From an uncultured Clostridia bacterium (lineage in GTDB: Bacteria; Bacillota; Clostridia; TANB77; CAG-508): a DNA stretch of 64,000 nucleotides. Position numbers and translations under genes: made by a program. The notes beneath the pieces are model-generated. The model saw only the letters and a list, made by a program, of their open reading frames with translations. It was not told where the DNA came from and did not search any database. Positions within the stretch are counted from its first letter, which is position 1. Each line of letters starts with the position of its first letter. This document shows positions 1,504 through 41,542 of the stretch, piece by piece. Where the stretch lies: contig OZ006973.1 in NCBI GenBank assembly GCA_963931085.1, positions 1,200,497-1,264,496 of the forward strand. The letters are read 5' to 3'.

Positions 1504-1983
1504 TTATATGTATATTATTTTATTTTTGTTTGCTTCAATATATTTAATTAAATCTTGAGACTTAATTAATACTGTTTTTGTATTTACTCCAGGATGTACT
1601 CCTAAAACATCTTCTTTTAATAAATCTTTATCAAAAATAACTTCTACATCAGCATCTTTGTCAAATAATATGGCAAGTGGTGTTACTGCACCTTTTTCAA
1701 CATTTAAATACTTTTTTAATCTTTCTTCTGATGCAAAACTTAATCTTGTTGATTCAATTTTATCAGGAAGTTCTGATAAATTTGCTGTTTTATCTTCTCT
1801 TAAAACATATAAGAAATGTCTTTTCCCTTTTTGATCTCTTAAAAATAAATTCTTACAAATACATGCTCCGTTAAAAAAATCTTTTCCAAGTCTGTCCATT
1901 TCTTCAATTGTATATACCGGGATATGATTTTTAATCTCATATTTAATATTTAATTCTTTTAGTTTAGCTAGTATCTCTTCCAT
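1504..1983 (-). CDS. YbaK/ProX-family aminoacyl-tRNA trans-editing deacylase, co-transcribed upstream of ileS
   Basis: 160-aa ORF with RBS GGAAGTGAG before the ATG at 1983. Its size and sequence are consistent with the Cys-tRNA(Pro)/YbaK deacylase fold. A 20-nt gap separates it from the ileS start, and it sits immediately downstream of the T-box terminator. Confidence 0.55.
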   Translation of the reverse strand: MEEILAKLKELNIKYEIKNHIPVYTIEEMDRLGKDFFNGACICKNLFLRDQKGKRHFLYVLREDKTANLSELPDKIESTRLSFASEERLKKYLNVEKGAVTPLAILFDKDADVEVIFDKDLLKEDVLGVHPGVNTKTVLIKSQDLIKYIEANKNKIIYI

Positions 1984-2035
1984 TTTCTCACTTCCTAACA
2001 AAAAAATTTATATTTTAAAAATCATATAGATAGAT

Positions 2036-2340
2036 AAAAAAAAAGAGCTATTCATCTATAGGACGAATAGCTCGTGGTACCACCTAAATTAATAATATTA
2101 ATCTTATGCTATAAATAAATACATATAATATAATATATTTTGAAATAAATTCATTATATTAAGATCAAATATTATTCACTCTAAATCCTGTAACATAGAA
2201 TCACTCGTCTTTAATTACTAAAAAATATTCTATATTTTCTTTTCACTAAAGCAATTCAAAGGTGATAATAAATACTATACTTATTCTACTGGATTTTCAG
2301 CTACCTCCAGCTCTCTTATTAGACTTTTTAGTATTTATCT
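2036..2340 (-). promoter_or_regulatory. T-box riboswitch leader, probable Ile specifier, controlling the ybaK-like/ileS operon
   Basis: The minus-strand RNA contains the conserved T-box AGGUGGUACCACG at 2072-2088. It overlaps an intrinsic terminator, GAGCUAUUCGUCC-loop-GGACGAAUAGCUC followed by U9, at 2036-2072. Stem I upstream has an AGAGAG element, a GCUGA kink-turn-like motif and an AUC-A specifier candidate. Confidence 0.8.
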
Positions 2341-2422
2341 TGTCCTTATCAAAATCTTTTACAAATATATTTGGTATTTTATCATGTTTTTATTTTATAT
2401 TCAAGTAATAAGGCTTATTTTT

Positions 2423-2451
2423 TTGATTTTTTTGCAAAAAAATGTTATAAT
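2423..2451 (+). promoter_or_regulatory. sigma-A-like promoter (TTGATT-17-TATAAT) in front of the GC-rich 88-aa gene
   Basis: TTGATT at 2423-2428, a 17-nt spacer, TATAAT at 2446-2451, about 50 nt upstream of the ATG at 2505. Confidence 0.4.
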
Positions 2452-2504
2452 TACTATAGTTCCAGCAATACCGCTGAACAATAAACGCAGAAAGGACGAT
2501 CGAA

Positions 2505-2771
2505 ATGGCTAAGAAAAAAGTTTTTCGGGTAATAGGAGTGTTTAAGGCAGAGGAAACGATGCCTGTGATGCTTAAGGTGGCAGATCATGCCCCGAGCAAA
2601 GACACGATTCGTCTCATGATGGGGCTTCGCATTCAGGATCGGAAGAAGAAGATTCCGTACGAAGAGTGCGCGCTCCGCAGGATTCAGGTTGACTTCCGGA
2701 ACGAGGAGGCGGCTCGCGAGTGCCGAGAGGCACTGAAACCCTTCCTCGTCAAGGACAGTAGCGATTTCTAA
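2505..2771 (+). CDS. hypothetical 88-aa protein encoded in a GC-rich (>50 percent GC) islet; no recognizable family
   Basis: Complete ORF with RBS GAAAGGA 8 nt before the ATG and its own rho-independent terminator. The composition differs sharply from the ~25 percent GC flanks. It uses CGG in-frame three times (FRV, DRK, FRN). Confidence 0.6.
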   Translation: MAKKKVFRVIGVFKAEETMPVMLKVADHAPSKDTIRLMMGLRIQDRKKKIPYEECALRRIQVDFRNEEAARECREALKPFLVKDSSDF

Positions 2772-2797
2772 GGGCTAACCCCCGAAAGACATCGTCC

Positions 2798-2839
2798 CCT
2801 CGCACTGGCTCATGCCGGTGCGAGGCTTCTTTTTTTTTT
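2798..2839 (+). terminator. rho-independent terminator of the 88-aa islet gene
   Basis: CCTCGCAC-loop-GTGCGAGG stem followed by T11. Confidence 0.7.
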
Positions 2840-2973
2840 ACTTAATTTACTTATTTTATTTACATTATTTAAATATATAATTAATTATTTTGTTCTGTTA
2901 TAAGTACATTTAAAATAAGATAAATAAAATAGATAAATAAAATAAATAAATTAATTAATTAATAAAAGAAAAA

Positions 2974-2995
2974 AGACATAGCTTGCTATGTCTTT
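2974..2995. terminator. bidirectional hairpin terminator downstream of hup
   Basis: AGACATAG-CTTG-CTATGTCT palindrome flanked by A-run and T-run. Confidence 0.6.
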
Positions 2996-3030
2996 TTATA
3001 TGAATTCATATAATTTTTATATAATTCTTC

Positions 3031-3309
3031 TTATTTTTTATTTACTAAATCTTTTAATGCTTTACCAGCTTTGAATACTGGAGCTTTTGATGCAGGTATT
3101 TTAATTTCTTCTTTTGTTTGTGGATTTCTTCCTTTTCTAGCTGCTCTTTTTCTAACTTCAAAAGAACCAAATCCAACTAATTGAACTTTGTCTCCTTTTG
3201 CTAATGCTTCTGTAACAACATCTACGAAAGAATTGATTGTTGCTTCAGCATTTTTCTTTGTTTCTCCTGTTTGTGCAGCTACTGCTGCGATTAATTCAGC
3301 TTTGTTCAT
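3031..3309 (-). CDS. hup: DNA-binding protein HU
   Basis: 92 aa. [11 protein letters not shown]...[27 protein letters not shown] is the canonical HU/IHF fold signature. Confidence 0.95.
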
Positions 3310-5466: not shown

Positions 5467-7866
5467 ATGATTACTTGGATAACTAGTTTCTTTTGGAAAT
5501 ATGTTGATAAATTTTTAAAAATAATAAAAACTGATAGAAATACTTTTTTTACATATGTACTGACGCTCATTTCTTTTTATTTATGTATAGATAGAATTGT
5601 TGAAGTATTATTTATGTGCTTTACAGGTATTTCAGTAGACTATTGGGGGCCTTTTACTTATACATTTGCATTAGCTTGTCCTGTATTTGCATTTCTATTT
5701 TCAGGAGGCTCTAAATTTGCATCTGATGATGGTAAAAAATTCTCATTGTTTTCAATGTATTGTATAGCACTTTATATAATTGGTATTTCAATGTTAGTTC
5801 AGTGGCTTAACAAATTATGTTGGATATTATTATTCTCTGTTCCAAATTACAACGGAATAGTAATGAATTTTATGGATTTGATAAGACCAGCATTTACAGC
5901 TCTTGCATGTTATGTTCCACTTATGACATTTTATCCATTCTTCAAAAAGATGTATACAAGCTTTGCTGATACAAAAGATATCAGAGATTCTATTGCAGAT
6001 TATAATGGTATAGATTTATCTGACACAAAAGAAGGATGGGGACCATATACATGCGAAATGTTCATATGTAAAGATGGTGAGACTGGTAAAACTATAAAAA
6101 TACCTGAATGTAGAAGGTTTGAGTCAACACTTATTGTTGGTACTTCAGGTTCCGGAAAAACTACAATGGCATTTGAACCAATGATTGCAAGAGATATTGA
6201 AAGGAAATATTTCTTAAGAGAAAGTTCAAAAGAACTTGGATTTACAGCATTAAGGACGGGGCTTGCAACTGTTGCAAAACCATATACTAATGATTATATG
6301 AACACAAATTTTTCATTAAATATGCTTACTGTTTCTCCTGGAAAAGAAAAACTTTTTAATGCATATTTGAAAAATCTTGTATACTTTTCTTCTGGAACAA
6401 AAACTATATACAAAAATTTAGGTATAACATATGTTGCACCAGATTTTGAATCTGTTTCACACATTATGGAAGTATTAGATAATTATGGTATGAGATACAA
6501 TTTAGTAGATCCAGCAGATGAAAATTCAGTTGGTCTTAACCCATTTGTATTCACTGATCCTGTAAAAACTGCTTTAGCAATTTCAGCTGTATTAAAAAGA
6601 ATGTATGAAACAAATAATGTAACACCAGAAGAAGCATTTATGCAAAATATAACTGCTCAAGCTATTGAGAACTTATCATTATTATTAAAAGAAATATATC
6701 CTGCATTAAATGAAGGAGCTCTTCCAAACTTAGAAGATTTACTTAGAATGTTAAATAACTTTGATTTAGTTGAAGGTTTCTGTGAAGAATTAAAGAAAAC
6801 TCCAGAACTAGCAGAAAAATATGCTATACTTTTAACATACTTTAAAAATAACTTTTATAAAGATTCTCGTGGTAGACAAGATACTGAAAAAGCTCTTCAA
6901 GCAGCAAGTTCACAACTTGAAAATTTATTAAGATTTCCTGGTGTAAGAAATATCTTATGTAATAGAACAAATAATATAAATTTTGATAAAGCTTTAGAAA
7001 ATGGTGAAATTACTCTTATATGTACAAGACGTGGTGACTTAGGATCTGCTGTAAATAAAGCATTTGGTTTATTTACATTATTACTAATGCAACATTCAGT
7101 AATATCAAGACCTGGTAATGAAAAAACTAGAATTCCACATTTCTTATATATAGATGAATTTCCTCCATTTGTATGTAAAGCAACTGAAGATTTCTTTACT
7201 CTATTTAGAAAATATAGAGTTGGATTAATTATATCTGCTCAGAACTTATCACAATTTGGTACAGAAAATGGTGAAAATTATAGACAAACTATTTTAGCTA
7301 ACTGTACTACAAAAATTGTTTTCGGTAATAATACACCTGAAGATAATAAATGGTGGGAAGAAGAATTTGGAGATAAAAGAGAGTGGCAATTTAGTAATAC
7401 TTATAATACAGATACAATGGAATATGATGCAAAATATGGTAGCATCAAATGGGCTTGGACAAAAAACTTCAAAGCTGGAAAAGTTCAGTCACAAAAGTTT
7501 AAAGCTATTATTTATAAAACAAGAGATATTAAAGGAAAAATGCTTGTTGGTAAAGGAAAATTAGATTTTCTAGAATCAAAATATAAAGAAAAACATCCAA
7601 CAAAAGTTTATAACTTTATAAAATATACATCTAACGCTATTCAAGGAGACCAAATAGAAGAACAAAAAGATTCAGTTACATTTAGCGGAAAATTAAAATC
7701 TTTCTTAAATCCAAAATTTATCCCTGGTGAATTTGATGAAAATGATCCTATTCAATATAATACAACAGATATGAAATATTTCTTTGAAAATGATGATGCA
7801 ATAAGCTTTAATTTATCAAATGATAATAGTCAAAATAGCGAAGATGAAAATAACAATAATGTTTAG
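5467..7866 (+). CDS. membrane-anchored type IV secretion coupling-protein-like ATPase (VirD4/TraG/TraD family), orphan
   Basis: 799 aa. N-terminal TM helices; Walker A LIVGTSGSGKTT; Walker B FLYIDEFPPF about 315 aa downstream, the long spacing typical of the T4CP all-alpha-domain insertion; ISAQNLSQF resembles the TraG Q-motif. RBS AAAGGTGGAG. Confidence 0.55.
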   Translation: MITWITSFFWKYVDKFLKIIKTDRNTFFTYVLTLISFYLCIDRIVEVLFMCFTGISVDYWGPFTYTFALACPVFAFLFSGGSKFASDDGKKFSLFSMYCIALYIIGISMLVQWLNKLCWILLFSVPNYNGIVMNFMDLIRPAFTALACYVPLMTFYPFFKKMYTSFADTKDIRDSIADYNGIDLSDTKEGWGPYTCEMFICKDGETGKTIKIPECRRFESTLIVGTSGSGKTTMAFEPMIARDIERKYFLRESSKELGFTALRTGLATVAKPYTNDYMNTNFSLNMLTVSPGKEKLFNAYLKNLVYFSSGTKTIYKNLGITYVAPDFESVSHIMEVLDNYGMRYNLVDPADENSVGLNPFVFTDPVKTALAISAVLKRMYETNNVTPEEAFMQNITAQAIENLSLLLKEIYPALNEGALPNLEDLLRMLNNFDLVEGFCEELKKTPELAEKYAILLTYFKNNFYKDSRGRQDTEKALQAASSQLENLLRFPGVRNILCNRTNNINFDKALENGEITLICTRRGDLGSAVNKAFGLFTLLLMQHSVISRPGNEKTRIPHFLYIDEFPPFVCKATEDFFTLFRKYRVGLIISAQNLSQFGTENGENYRQTILANCTTKIVFGNNTPEDNKWWEEEFGDKREWQFSNTYNTDTMEYDAKYGSIKWAWTKNFKAGKVQSQKFKAIIYKTRDIKGKMLVGKGKLDFLESKYKEKHPTKVYNFIKYTSNAIQGDQIEEQKDSVTFSGKLKSFLNPKFIPGEFDENDPIQYNTTDMKYFFENDDAISFNLSNDNSQNSEDENNNNV

Positions 7867-28598: not shown

Positions 28599-28648
28599 AA
28601 TATCATCATTATCTAAAAAGATATAAAAAAATAAAATATAAAAAGGGA

Positions 28649-28690
28649 AACCCCCACAGGTTACAGATAACCTGCGGGGGTTCCTTTTGG
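28649..28690. terminator. GC-rich bidirectional hairpin terminator between asnS and the XRE gene
   Basis: GGAAACCCCCACAGGTTA-loop-TAACCTGCGGGGGTTCC, flanked by an A-run and a T-run. Confidence 0.65.
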
Positions 28691-28692
28691 AG

Positions 28693-28914
28693 TTAATAGT
28701 CCAAAAACCAATCAGGACGCTTGAATTTATCCGGCTTTACGATAAAATCCAGGAGCGTCATGAGACATGCAAGCTCGAACATTCCGGGCTCATCAGCGTC
28801 TGACTCAAAGTCGAGCAATCTCTGCTCTTCAATCTTCATCCGCTTCGCAAGTGCCTCTGTGCTCACTCCCTTTTTCACTCTTGCCGTTTTGATCTGCTGT
28901 CCTAATGTTGCCAT
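28693..28914 (-). CDS. XRE-family helix-turn-helix transcriptional regulator (Cro/CI-type), GC-rich islet gene
   Basis: 73 aa. GQQIKTARVKKGVSTEALAKRMKI is an HTH_XRE motif. Elevated GC. Uses CGG in-frame once (KRM). Palindromes lie in its upstream region. Confidence 0.7.
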   Translation of the reverse strand: MATLGQQIKTARVKKGVSTEALAKRMKIEEQRLLDFESDADEPGMFELACLMTLLDFIVKPDKFKRPDWFLDY

Positions 28915-29048
28915 AACACATTCCTCCTAGAATAGTCCATAGTGGACTATGTTTTTTATATAGACAAACAATATGTCTAAAATTAATTATACTACTTTTT
29001 TTAAAAAGTTTCAAATCATTAATCTATACAATAATTTTTATGATTGTG

Positions 29049-30180
29049 GGTTAGTCAATCATATGTCACACTTCTTTGAAATCAATACTGTTTGAGCACC
29101 ATATATTGTTTATACTGATTCTCCTTGACTTTTATATCTTTTTAAGAACTCGTTGGGGCTCAGCCATCCTAGCGGTCTCATTGGAAAATTATTATACTGT
29201 TTTCTCCAATCTGCTCCTCTATTTCTTAAATCTTCTAAACTATAAAATATTTTTCCATAATAAAATTGTTCTTGATCTTTTCTATGACTTCTTTCTACTC
29301 GTCCATTTTCTTTTGGTGTGTATGGCTTTATTAATTTATGCTTTATTCCTATTTTCTTTAATGTCTCTTCAAACTTTGTTTTCTTATTTTTTGCAAATGC
29401 ATTCCAACTTAATCTATTTGTAAACTCAAATCCATTATCTGTTTGAATTGTTTCTATTTTAAACGGAAAATACTTTATAACTCTTTTTACAAACTCACTT
29501 GACATATATGTGCTATGCTCATTTGTAAACCATGTGTATCGTTTTCTCGTAAATTCATCTATTGCTGTATATTGATAAAACTTTTCTCCTTTATCTTTTA
29601 ATTCTTTTGTTAAACATTCTTGTGGAACATATTTTACATCTATTTGAACTTTGTCTCCTGGAAATTTTCCTGAAGTCCATTCCATTGCTTGTTTTGCTTT
29701 CTTTTTACTTGGTGCTTTTTTATATATCCCCATTCGTCTCATCACATAATATAATCCTTGAACTGTCCTTGTGTATCCCGCTTGTCTTAATTTTATCCAT
29801 AATACTACTAATCCTGTATTTTTATTGTTTGCTTTATATTGTTTTATTAATTTTATTTCTTCTTTTGTATGTTGATTTGGATGATAGTGCGGTTTTCTTG
29901 ATTTGTCCTTTAAACTTTCTAAACTCCCATCATATTTTTTTCTCCATCTATATATTGTTCTCCTGCACTCACTATACTTAATTGCCGTTTTTGTTACACC
30001 ATATTTATAAGAAAATTTTACTACAGACTCTTTATATTTTAATCTTTGTATGATATTATTACCCATATTGAAAGAGATCACTCCTTTCTTGTTTATTTGT
30101 CGTTATTTAAACAATATCATTTGGTGTGCTCTCTTTCAATATTTTATTTTCAATTTACATGTGACATATCTATTTTAAAC
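29049..30180 (-). mobile_element. insertion sequence carrying a single DDE (rve-type) transposase, with imperfect ~23-bp terminal inverted repeats
   Basis: Left end GGTTAGTCAATCATATGTCACAC versus the right-end reverse complement GGTTTAAAATAGATATGTCACAT (15/23 identical, ATATGTCACA core). A 27-bp direct repeat lies 4-5 bp outside each end. It interrupts a GC-rich islet. Confidence 0.7.
29110..30066 (-). CDS. IS transposase, DDE/rve integrase-core family (IS481/IS30-like)
   Basis: ~318 aa. N-terminal HTH; catalytic core with D (IQTDNGFEF) and the conserved C-terminal KPYTPKENGRVERSHR motif. RBS AAAGGAGTGA. Confidence 0.8.
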   Translation of the reverse strand: MGNNIIQRLKYKESVVKFSYKYGVTKTAIKYSECRRTIYRWRKKYDGSLESLKDKSRKPHYHPNQHTKEEIKLIKQYKANNKNTGLVVLWIKLRQAGYTRTVQGLYYVMRRMGIYKKAPSKKKAKQAMEWTSGKFPGDKVQIDVKYVPQECLTKELKDKGEKFYQYTAIDEFTRKRYTWFTNEHSTYMSSEFVKRVIKYFPFKIETIQTDNGFEFTNRLSWNAFAKNKKTKFEETLKKIGIKHKLIKPYTPKENGRVERSHRKDQEQFYYGKIFYSLEDLRNRGADWRKQYNNFPMRPLGWLSPNEFLKRYKSQGESV

Positions 30181-30304: not shown

Positions 30305-30544
30305 ATGTGTAGCGATATGCCTGATGGGGTATTTACCGATACTATCAAAAGCATAAAGAAAATTGGTAGTCTTGGTGAACTTGAAAGCTCAGAGATCATT
30401 CTTGATCTTGCTAGATTCGGCACATATAGTTTCGACTATTTTTGCCACTGGCAATACGAAGATTTCTGGCTAAATGCCCATCTTGGGTCAAGAGTTAAGG
30501 TAAGCATATCTAGCGGTCACATCAGCCAGATTCAGCTTATCTAG
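30305..30544 (+). CDS. hypothetical 79-aa protein, GC-rich islet gene, divergent partner of the XRE gene in the IS-interrupted islet
   Basis: Strong RBS AGAAAGGAGGTG 6 nt before the ATG. Elevated GC. No family recognized. Confidence 0.55.
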   Translation: MCSDMPDGVFTDTIKSIKKIGSLGELESSEIILDLARFGTYSFDYFCHWQYEDFWLNAHLGSRVKVSISSGHISQIQLI

Positions 30545-37861: not shown

Positions 37862-38224
37862 CTTTATAATATGGTGGAGACGAGGAGAGTCGAACTCCTG
37901 TCCAGAATTTCATCCATATAAACTTCTCCGAGTGCAGTTTGTTATTAATTTTCCAAATATTATTCATTAACAAACAAACGAATAATATTTGTATCTTCTA
38001 AAATCCCTCTATTATCGAAGAATATAATAGATTCGTTTCCTACTAATTCGGCGCCTTAATCTTTAGTCGTAGGTTACTAAAGTAAGACGTTGCTGCAAAC
38101 TAGGCAGCAATAGCTAATTCTTTATTATCAGCGTTTATTTTTAAATTGCATCTTTTATGGTGGCCAGATGCTCCACCACTCGCTATTTATATTTCAAAAA
38201 AGCTGTCGAAACCATTACGTCCCC
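37862..38224 (-). ncRNA. ssrA: tmRNA (SsrA), encoded tag ADNKELAIAA
   Basis: Minus-strand 5' end GGGGACGUAAUGGUUUCGACAGC (canonical tmRNA start). 3' end GGACAGGAGUUCGACUCUCCUCGUCUCCACCA (T-arm, acceptor, CCA). Internal ORF GCT GAT AAT AAA GAA TTA GCT ATT GCT GCC TAG. Confidence 0.9.
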
Positions 38225-41125: not shown

Positions 41126-41542
41126 AACACTCATGTATAAATAACAACCAACGTTTGAGCTTTAGCATTATAGGGCGTGTTCATTGTATTAATCAATACC
41201 TTAGAGTCGATATTGACTGCTATCCAGCTTATAATGTCTCCATTACTTCGCGGCAACAACCCATATCCCTATAGTAGCCTTACCTACCGATTTTTATTAT
41301 TTTATTCATTGCTAATAAATATTAGCACAATATTTTTGATATGTCAATATATTTTACTGATTTTTTTAATATTTTAAGTAATATTTTATTAAAGATATGT
41401 ATATCTCATTTTTTCTCTCTTAATCTCTTGTTTTTTCGTTTATTCTATATGATATATTAAAATAATATTTTAATATATCAAAATAATATTAAAAGGCAAG
41501 TAATAAATACTTGCCTTTAGTATTTAAATATCTATCAATTAT

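Follow-up and report, generated by a model that had tools for sequence, protein, structure and literature searches.

A vertically inherited, GC-rich small gene of AT-rich Clostridia and the putative sequestration of its Shine-Dalgarno sequence by its own 3' end

The window analysed here, the whole 64-kb stretch (64,000 nucleotides) of contig OZ006973.1 from an uncultured Clostridia bacterium, contains a small GC-rich gene between the operon of a T-box leader and ileS on one side and hup, which encodes HU, on the other. This gene is inherited vertically at a fixed site and is not a recent arrival, and from its predicted base pairing its mRNA appears to form a closed loop in which the Shine-Dalgarno (SD) sequence is covered by a complementary sequence (anti-SD) at the 3' end of the same transcript. 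The reading preferred here is that of a vertically inherited, lineage-restricted, translated gene with a self-sequestering mRNA, a GC richness maintained by selection on that mRNA, and alleles that are exchanged; taken as a whole, this reading is given slightly better than even chances. An earlier note on the same DNA had described the block at 2462-2845 as a self-contained single-gene islet of high GC content, recently acquired or cassette-like, encoding a protein of no recognizable family, with a small regulator or an anti-defence or addiction component put forward as possible roles.

The block at 2462-2845 is the strongest GC outlier of the window. With intervals of 200 nucleotides (nt), the GC content is 0.495-0.565 over positions 2501-2800 compared to 0.18-0.26 on each flank; with intervals of 150 nt, it peaks at 0.61 compared to a 64-kb mean of 0.267 (standard deviation 0.056), which is about six standard deviations above the mean and the maximum of the window; and the block overall has a GC content of 0.52 compared to 0.27. 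Thus the high-GC block of approximately 380 bp is real, and the GC shift survives a quantitative sliding-window analysis. The open reading frame (ORF), which encodes 88 amino acids exactly as quoted in the earlier note, has a GC content at third codon positions (GC3) of 0.63 compared to 0.09-0.12 for the neighbouring genes and 0.123 across 38 long ORFs of the window. Rare codons, defined as those with a host usage below 10% within their codon family, make up 39% of the small-gene ORF compared to a host mean of 5.6% and a host maximum of 9.5%. None of its nine arginine codons is AGA, which accounts for 86% of the arginine codons of the host, compared to 0.4% for CGG and 0.2% for CGC. The codon usage is therefore as alien to the host as had been claimed, and the atypical composition and codon usage by which an islet or cassette may be recognized are both found in the block. 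The promoter (TTGATT, 17-nt spacer, TATAAT), the ribosome-binding site and the GC-rich terminator that were said to make the block a self-contained single gene are all confirmed.

The history of the site does not bear out the inference of recent acquisition. The small gene has the T-box/ileS operon on one side and hup on the other, with a murJ/spoVB-like gene and then an orphan TraG-like gene beyond hup, in the window, in L005 (the metagenome-assembled genome JAAWJE01) and in the L017 group, whose small protein is 36% identical to that of the window. The short contigs L001-L004, L011, L012, L014 and L023-L025 share flanks with the window, namely the upstream promoter and leader sequence and, where the contigs reach that far, the T-box leader and the end of hup. 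Every relative that was found has the small gene at this position, and in none of them is the site between ileS and hup empty, so that the comparison proposed in the earlier note, of whether this region is empty in relatives, found it occupied in every related contig. Between the window and L004, the number of synonymous substitutions per synonymous site (dS) is 0.216 for the small gene, 0.235 for the tRNA_edit gene and 0.20 for ileS, which indicates that the small gene travelled with its neighbours. The L017 allele is host-like in composition (GC content 0.29, GC3 0.20). The claim of recent acquisition is contradicted by the homologues at the same site, one of them with host-like composition, and by a dS that matches that of the neighbours. 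The description of the gene as cassette-like fares better in part: tandem units in one lineage and an allele swap confined to the ORF in one strain pair, both described below, agree with it, and the lack of any empty site among the relatives and the neighbour-like dS do not. No integrase or transposase adjoins the block. The only flanking direct repeat, AGGCTTMTTTTTTT, was considered as an attachment site and rejected, being a T-run without conservation among the other alleles. In two contigs (L013 430-608, L015 700-968), the small-gene unit is joined to infB-like or DHH-family fragments and not to hup; both joins probably arose as assembly chimeras within the AT-rich spacer. L015 has approximately 1.4 times coverage, and L013 carries the SD variant GGCUGA, which would weaken the pairing with the anti-SD.

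Judging from the pattern of substitutions, the small gene is translated and is under purifying selection. The ratio of nonsynonymous to synonymous substitution (dN/dS) is 0.31 between the window and L004, 0.165 between L005 and L006, and 0.34 in an imported tract that distinguishes L004 from L023, where the differences at the first, second and third codon positions are in the proportion 11:8:22. The ORF is intact in all ten clusters, and the differences in length are of whole codons. Protein identity between allele groups is 37-48%, with an ORF nucleotide identity of only about 70%, and both termini are conserved (MAKKxVFRVIGI at the N-terminus and CRE.L..F.EDKSDF at the C-terminus), as are the residues Arg8, Arg36, Arg59 and Gln61. 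The family evolves fast: between the window and L005, the small protein is approximately 37-40% identical, compared to 97% for HU, 82% for IleRS, 81% for the MurJ-like protein and 60% for the editing protein.

Family members range from 82 to 91 amino acids (aa), and the product in the window is predicted to be a charged, soluble alpha/beta domain of 88 aa. An AlphaFold2 model made from an alignment of nine sequences only has a mean predicted local distance difference test score (pLDDT) of 92.2 and a predicted template modelling score (pTM) of 0.78. The predicted order of secondary structure, beta-alpha-beta-beta-alpha-beta, would be a generic ferredoxin-like fold such as that of ACT and PII-like domains. 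In the model, this resemblance suggests a small module that binds a ligand or a partner; the ferredoxin-like fold is among the commonest, so no particular ligand or function is implied, and sequence identity to the ferredoxin-like domains of ACT, PII-like and MgtC C-terminal type is at most 17%. The statement of the earlier note that the protein belongs to no recognizable family is upheld by searches of Pfam, NCBIfam, PADLOC, PHROGs and the PDB. Stray hits aside, Pfam and NCBIfam assign no family to any of the nine members; PADLOC gives no match; no PDB sequence matches the small protein; and in PHROGs there is a weak match of three of the nine members to phrog_1474, a family of unknown function, with a best E-value of 3.6e-4. 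A fold search of BFVD returned nothing at an E-value of 0.001 or lower. A HMMER profile scan of 1.84 billion representative proteins found six clusters at 50% identity, and word-indexed searches of 5.8 billion proteins found ten clusters at 90% identity. There are no relatives in IMG/VR, in JGI metagenome contigs, or among plasmids by protein or DNA search, and a tblastn search of phage records yielded one meaningless match only. The family is confined to one group of very AT-rich uncultured Clostridia.

The features of the gene, its predicted transcript and its neighbours are listed in Table 1.

Table 1. Features of the small gene, of its predicted mRNA and of the adjoining genes (window coordinates)
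Feature	Position	Strand	Description
Sigma-70-type promoter	2423-2451	+	-35 TTGATT, 17-nt spacer, TG-extended -10 TATAAT (TGTTATAAT); 10 of 12 matches
5'-terminal mRNA hairpin	2459-2479	+	GUUCCAGC-AAUACC-GCUGAAC; 1-2 nt past the predicted transcription start at about 2458
Shine-Dalgarno region	2490-2500	+	GAAAGGACGAU; GGACGAU at 2494-2500 is the 5' arm of the putative long-range helix
Small-gene ORF	2505-2771	+	88 aa, stop codon included in the coordinates; predicted ferredoxin-like, unnamed lineage-restricted family
Anti-SD AUCGUCC	2791-2797	+	In the short 3' untranslated region, abutting the terminator stem; 3' arm, putative pairing with 2494-2500
Intrinsic terminator	2798-2839	+	Stem-loop 2798-2825 of 12 pairs (9 G-C), then CUUC and U10 ending at 2839
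T-box-like leader	2056-2361	-	Divergent; full-length model match of 54 bits, E-value 8.7e-11, below the Rfam gathering score of 93
Promoter of T-box-like leader	2404-2376	-	Back to back with the small-gene promoter
tRNA_edit gene, YbaK/ProX-type	1504-2001	-	ORF; first gene after the T-box-like leader, ileS being second
hup (HU)	3031-3309	-	Convergent with the small gene

The transcription start is placed by the position of the -10 element. The arrangement TTGATT...TGnTATAAT is retained in most alleles, and the -10 element of L005 is TATACT. From one to four nt past the predicted start, the leaders of all ten alleles have a hairpin of 6-8 bp (z-scores of -2.1 to -5.1), and comparison of the allele sequences finds compensated changes of its stem from A-U to G-C and from C-G to U-A. 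The leader motif is present in a single copy in the window and is shared with no other gene there. An SD of the form GAAAGGA(Y)G is common to all alleles, and the 3' untranslated region (UTR) ahead of the terminator is 7-30 nt long, ending in a sequence that is complementary to the SD and the bases that follow it; this anti-SD always touches the terminator stem. The pairing differs between alleles: GGACGAU with AUCGUCC in the window clade, GGAUGA(A) with (U)UCAUCC in L005, L012 and L017, GGAUGG(U) with (A)CCAUCC in L014a, L014b and L025, and AAGGAUG with CAUCCUU in L011. A terminator rich in G+C is present in every allele, and its sequence differs between alleles.

When whole transcripts of approximately 355-380 nt are folded without constraints, the helix of SD and anti-SD, which spans about 300 nt, is part of the minimum-free-energy fold of nine of the eleven alleles. 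Its pair probability is 0.56-0.99 in eight of these nine, reaching 0.97-0.99 for the window allele and 0.99 for that of the AT-rich L017; the ninth, L014a, was counted from its fold partners. In the 6-bp core of the helix, two columns have compensatory double changes, and no pair is broken in the first of these columns. The covariation score is 0.183 compared to 0.097 +/- 0.027 for shuffled alignments, a value reached by two of 500 shuffles and well above that of most slid registers. A matrix of cognate and non-cognate duplexes of SD and 3' UTR has no clear diagonal, because most alleles share GGAUG. Fold z-scores of transcripts and ORFs cover eight alleles, that is, all except L014b, L025 and L017. 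For whole transcripts they range from -2.7 to -5.9, the plus strand of the window having -4.1 to -4.3; for the ORF alone they are inconsistent, from +0.5 to -2.4, and not significant, which implies that the signal of structure comes from the UTR elements. A search of the whole window with Rfam 15 at the gathering score gives no match over 2462-2845. A scan of 2000-3050 by E-value adds only sub-threshold matches, namely ctRNA_pGA1 at the terminator (25 bits compared to a threshold of 45) and, on the minus strand, CssrA (13.5 compared to 93) and HgcG (11.4 compared to 77).

The promoter spacer contains a perfect palindrome, ATTTTTTTG/CAAAAAAAT (T7-GC-A7), at 2417-2443, preceded by a direct copy of ATTTTTTTG; symmetry of a T-run and an A-run at the promoter spacer is also seen in other alleles. 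The palindrome could be an operator, or a bend between two back-to-back promoters.

The GC richness of the gene persists across most of the family. By allele group, GC3 is 0.60-0.64 for the window and L004, 0.57-0.61 for L011 and L012, 0.50-0.63 for L014a and L025, 0.40-0.45 for L005 and L006, 0.42 for L023 and 0.20 for L017, with flanking genes at 0.09-0.12 throughout; GC3 is therefore 0.40-0.64 in five of the six allele groups. Both L005 and L006 hold their GC3 of 0.40-0.45 across a dS of 0.77. In a two-state model with a host equilibrium GC3 of about 0.1, we infer that mutation from G/C to A/T would be about ninefold as frequent as the reverse, from which it is predicted that unconstrained GC-rich synonymous sites would change approximately three times as fast as AT-rich sites, and that the GC richness would decay within the divergences seen. 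Since the dS of the small gene is like that of its neighbours and a GC3 of about 0.4 is held across a dS of 0.77, the composition is probably maintained. We think that selection on the mRNA is the likeliest reason, whether for resistance to AU-directed ribonucleases (RNases), for slow decoding, or for both; this is the weakest step of the preferred reading because one lineage, L017, does without GC richness. RNA structure inside the ORF was rejected as a general cause, given the inconsistent z-scores of the ORF alone.

The codon for Arg8 (codon 8, window 2526-2528) is CGG in eight of ten alleles, including that of the AT-rich L017, and CGA or CGC in the other two; it is never AGA. This pattern supports some constraint at the codon level, and the codon could be a programmed slow codon or a signal at the nucleotide level. 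No conserved pairing partner for the CGG was found. A second long-range helix, between UUUCGGG of the ORF and CCCGAAA of the 3' UTR, exists in the window clade only and so cannot explain the conserved CGG. 

Alleles of the gene are exchanged, as seen in one strain pair. L003 and L004 differ from L023 and L024 at two of 730 nt of flanking sequence (T-box leader, promoter, UTRs, spacer and the end of hup) and at 45 of 267 positions of the ORF (Fisher p of 6e-25 for ORF versus flanks). All of the differences between the L004 and L023 ORFs are clustered within ORF nt 47-244, with a dS of 0.51. On comparison of these sequences, the pattern is as expected when a short tract has been imported from a divergent but functional allele, with putative crossovers in the conserved ends of the gene. 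Hypermutation and a diversity-generating retroelement were rejected because each of the four bases takes part in the substitutions (G>A 9, G>T 7, C>T 6, T>C 6, A>T 4, A>C 4, A>G 3, C>A 2, T>A 1) and third positions are over-represented. Silent donor cassettes for gene conversion were likewise rejected, as no second copy or fragment of the block is present within the 64 kb. L014 has a tandem pair of paralogous units (300-1075) in the interval from the T-box region to hup. The first encodes P0007 (91 aa) and the second a divergent paralogue of 82 aa (MPKETYTVAGTF...), and both are equipped with a AGUUUCAGU hairpin, an GAAAGGAUGG SD, a CCAUCC anti-SD and a terminator of their own. The exact protein of the window occurs in 70 index blocks of the assembly collection, in every case on contigs shorter than 2 kb, the left ends of which cluster at approximately 1816 or 2060 and the right ends at approximately 2840 or 3070 (window 1810-3070; loci L032-L039). 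These clusters fall in conserved stretches of tRNA_edit, of the T-box leader, of the terminator and of hup. Taken with the much longer contigs, of up to more than 1 Mb, that carry another small gene of the genome, such assembly breaks fit, as indirect evidence, a variable segment bracketed by sequences common to co-occurring relatives.

The proposed pathway of expression is as follows. Transcription from the strong, TG-extended promoter would produce an mRNA of about 380 nt, the first nucleotides of which may fold into a protective hairpin, with the terminator guarding the 3' end. The SD, within GGACGAU, would pair with AUCGUCC at the foot of the terminator approximately 300 nt downstream, such that the finished transcript would be a closed loop. 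Ribosomes could then load mainly during transcription, or once some trigger opens the helix, and the pairing of the mRNA ends may also shield the RNA. In most lineages, the GC richness and rare codons would be kept against the AT mutation pressure of the host, and alleles would occasionally be swapped between related species, the conserved ends of the gene serving as crossover points. Several observations weigh against this model. The small alignment used for covariation was anchored on GGA and UCC, that is, on the proposed helix itself, and there are only two independent compensatory events. The helix is 5-7 bp long, a C-rich 3' UTR pairs readily with any SD, and the p-values of shuffles per allele range from 0.004 to 0.16; the minimum-free-energy folds of L006 and L014b are without the helix. 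The ORF body alone is not significantly structured, and L017 combines a host-like GC content with the same UTR architecture, so that the gene can exist without a high GC content. Both the transcription start and every regulatory consequence are inferred from the sequence.

Two experimentally studied mRNAs of Firmicutes resemble the predicted architecture. In the icaR mRNA of Staphylococcus aureus, the sequence UCCCCUG of the 3' UTR pairs with the SD, blocks initiation and makes the mRNA a substrate of RNase III, as established by experiment (PMC3868564). The small gene is similar in that a C-rich motif of the 3' UTR would face the SD of the same monocistronic mRNA of a small protein, here as predicted from sequence, and the feature by which an icaR-type pairing of 5' and 3' UTRs may be recognized, a 3'-UTR motif complementary to the SD and conserved among relatives, appears to be present. 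It differs in that the 3' UTR of icaR is long, whereas here it is 7-30 nt with the anti-SD directly against the terminator stem, and in that the proteins are unrelated, IcaR being a repressor of biofilm exopolysaccharide synthesis and the small protein being ferredoxin-like by prediction. In the hbs mRNA of Bacillus subtilis, which encodes HU, a 14-bp helix of the 5' and 3' UTRs together with initiating ribosomes controls the access of RNase Y and RNase J1 (PMC5737220). Both, the small gene by prediction, are small, strongly expressed monocistronic Firmicute mRNAs with 5' structure, a strong SD and end-to-end pairing; however, the hbs helix modulates a 5'-UTR cleavage site, and its description does not extend to masking of the SD, whereas the putative helix of the small gene covers the SD and is half as long, and the small gene is a neighbour of hup, not hup itself.

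The alien composition and codon usage, the range of GC3 between allele groups from 0.20 to 0.64 with one lineage fully host-like, the import of alleles, which does occur, and an ORF body without significant structure would also be expected of an old foreign gene, which the common ancestor of these lineages acquired from a G+C-richer source and whose functionless GC richness has been decaying at lineage-specific speeds and is topped up by imports, the pairing of the UTRs being incidental. This explanation is possible but unlikely: no donor or reservoir is visible among the 5.8 billion proteins, phages and plasmids searched; lineages at a neighbour dS of 0.55-0.8 keep a GC3 of 0.40 or more, with one exception; and the small gene and its AT-rich neighbours have the same dS (0.216 compared to 0.20-0.235), in place of the approximately threefold faster change that is predicted from a host GC3 of about 0.1. 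That the block is instead a recently acquired islet or mobile cassette between ileS and hup, as the earlier note read it, is extremely unlikely, considering that no relative found, even a distant one at 37-48% protein identity, lacks the gene at this site, that dS equals that of the neighbours and the L017 copy is host-like, that neither a mobility gene nor a meaningful flanking repeat was found, and that phages, plasmids and viruses yielded no homologues. What speaks for a recent islet is the alien GC content and codon usage, the self-contained expression signals, the tandem duplication of the unit in L014, and the divergence confined to the ORF between near-identical strains.

In type I toxin systems such as hok/sok and aapA1/IsoA1, the full-length toxin mRNA is stable and translationally inert, and its paired 5' and 3' ends hide the ribosome-binding site. 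A module of this type, in which a stable mRNA silenced by its 5'-3' fold-back would release a small harmful protein upon processing of the RNA or loss of an antisense RNA, is consistent with the predicted closed-loop sequestration of the SD, the 5' hairpin, the strong promoter and terminator, and a small, basic product whose orphan family evolves fast and includes a tandem duplication; soluble type I toxins are also known (SymE, RalR). It is nevertheless very improbable here. The product is predicted to be a soluble alpha/beta domain of 88 aa and not a hydrophobic membrane peptide; the sequence gives no evident sign of an antisense RNA, as neither a conserved promoter nor a conserved terminator for one was found and the one weak promoter-like site on the minus strand (2901-2872, 9 of 12 matches) is in a spacer that is absent from L005 and L006; a single copy at a fixed, housekeeping site of the chromosome in all lineages is unusual for toxin-antitoxin loci; and PADLOC is without a match. 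There is similarly little probability that the block is a structured non-coding or dual-function RNA whose ORF is secondary or fortuitous. Structured RNAs are over-represented in the GC-rich intergenic regions of AT-rich genomes (PMC6429828), the plus strand of the window has the fold z-scores given above, and CGG at Arg8 in eight of ten alleles hints at a constraint on nucleotides, but no Rfam family is matched at threshold, the protein is recognizably conserved, termini included, over sequences with a nucleotide identity of about 70%, dN/dS is well below one with third codon positions changing most, a confident protein fold is predicted, and the z-scores of the ORF alone are not significant. 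Searches of GC-rich intergenic regions have also found that many long regions taken to be intergenic hold unannotated coding genes or short ORFs (PMC6429828). The block resembles these in turning out to be protein-coding, and differs from what is addressed there in that its GC excess is in the coding body of a long vertically inherited gene.

With respect to the neighbours of the gene, the T-box context given in the earlier note, which placed the block next to an ileS T-box, is correct insofar as a T-box-like leader adjoins the block; the leader serves the tRNA_edit gene first and ileS only thereafter. The editing-domain gene precedes ileS in the window, L004, L005 and L006, and in the L017 lineage (L017 9141-10001) there are 860 nt without a called gene from ileS to the small gene. 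Further along the window, at 5467-7866 (+), is an orphan homologue of coupling proteins of the TraG/VirD4 type (799 aa; domains TraG-D_C, TrwB_AAD_bind and T4SS-DNA_transf). The distant L017 lineage has this TraG-like gene in the same chromosomal position, adjoining the murJ/spoVB-like gene and hup, and no other conjugation genes are in view.

The small-gene block is not unique in the window, where at least two other small stand-alone genes are GC-enriched. One, at 28632-28990 (-), has an ORF (28693-28914) of 73 aa with a GC content of 0.46, a GC3 of 0.54 and 31% rare codons, and helix-turn-helix matches of its product are weak, falling short of the Pfam cut-offs. The gene comes with a TTGAAA-17-TATAAT promoter, a 5'-terminal hairpin and a G+C-rich terminator, and in its minimum-free-energy fold the SD GGAG pairs with CUCC just past the stop codon, with an unpaired probability of the SD of approximately 0.5. 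Within the assembly collection, 590 blocks list exactly this 73-aa protein, the contigs reaching more than 1 Mb, and its gene is flanked by pheT and asnS in the six places shown. Another, at 30305-30544 (+), encodes 79 aa with a GC3 of 0.41 compared to 0.12 for the host, and has a promoter-like TATGATATAAT, the SD GAAAGGAGG and a G+C-rich terminator; its orthologues in L026-L031 have no Pfam hit on record. Between these two genes is a transposase gene (29110-30081, minus strand; rve-type integrase core, 323 aa) that is present in the window and L026 and absent at the same place in L027-L031, which indicates a recent insertion-sequence polymorphism. The window also contains an ordinary transfer-messenger RNA (tmRNA; 37872-38224, minus strand; tag ADNKELAIAA) and an M-box magnesium riboswitch (41139-41298, minus strand), both well above the Rfam thresholds, and ARAGORN finds only the tmRNA and a tRNA-Leu, both elsewhere than the block.

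The predicted 5' hairpin of the 73-aa gene and the pairing of its SD with its 3' UTR in the model hint at a recurring design, which is the least proven of the leads. An improbable extension is that the lineage keeps a class of stand-alone, GC-rich genes with rare codons in closed-loop mRNAs (5' hairpin, SD and anti-SD paired at the terminator), which would act as a gate of expression: the RNA would be abundant and long-lived, and would be translated only co-transcriptionally or once rare tRNAs or a signal for unfolding become available. Such a gate would serve fast-evolving small proteins whose alleles are exchanged between species, and would be the mirror, in an AT-rich genome, of the bldA/TTA system of Streptomyces. 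The window has at least two candidates for this class and perhaps a third.

The immediate impact of these findings is modest, as the family has few members, all of them in uncultured Clostridia of the gut type. With an unnamed family and a confident predicted fold, the small protein is a candidate for a new family entry. So far, only a handful of bacterial examples, icaR and hbs among them, underlie the mechanism by which an mRNA sequesters its SD with its own 3' end; if the preferred reading of the small gene is true, it would be a natural and phylogenetically supported instance, with compensatory variants ready for testing. It would also pose the sharp question of what holds GC3 at 0.4-0.6 beside neighbours at 0.1. 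A compositional island in an AT-rich genome would then not necessarily mean recent transfer, since the island here would belong to a gene that kept its place while many species diverged, and methods that find islands by composition would have to be applied to such genomes with caution.

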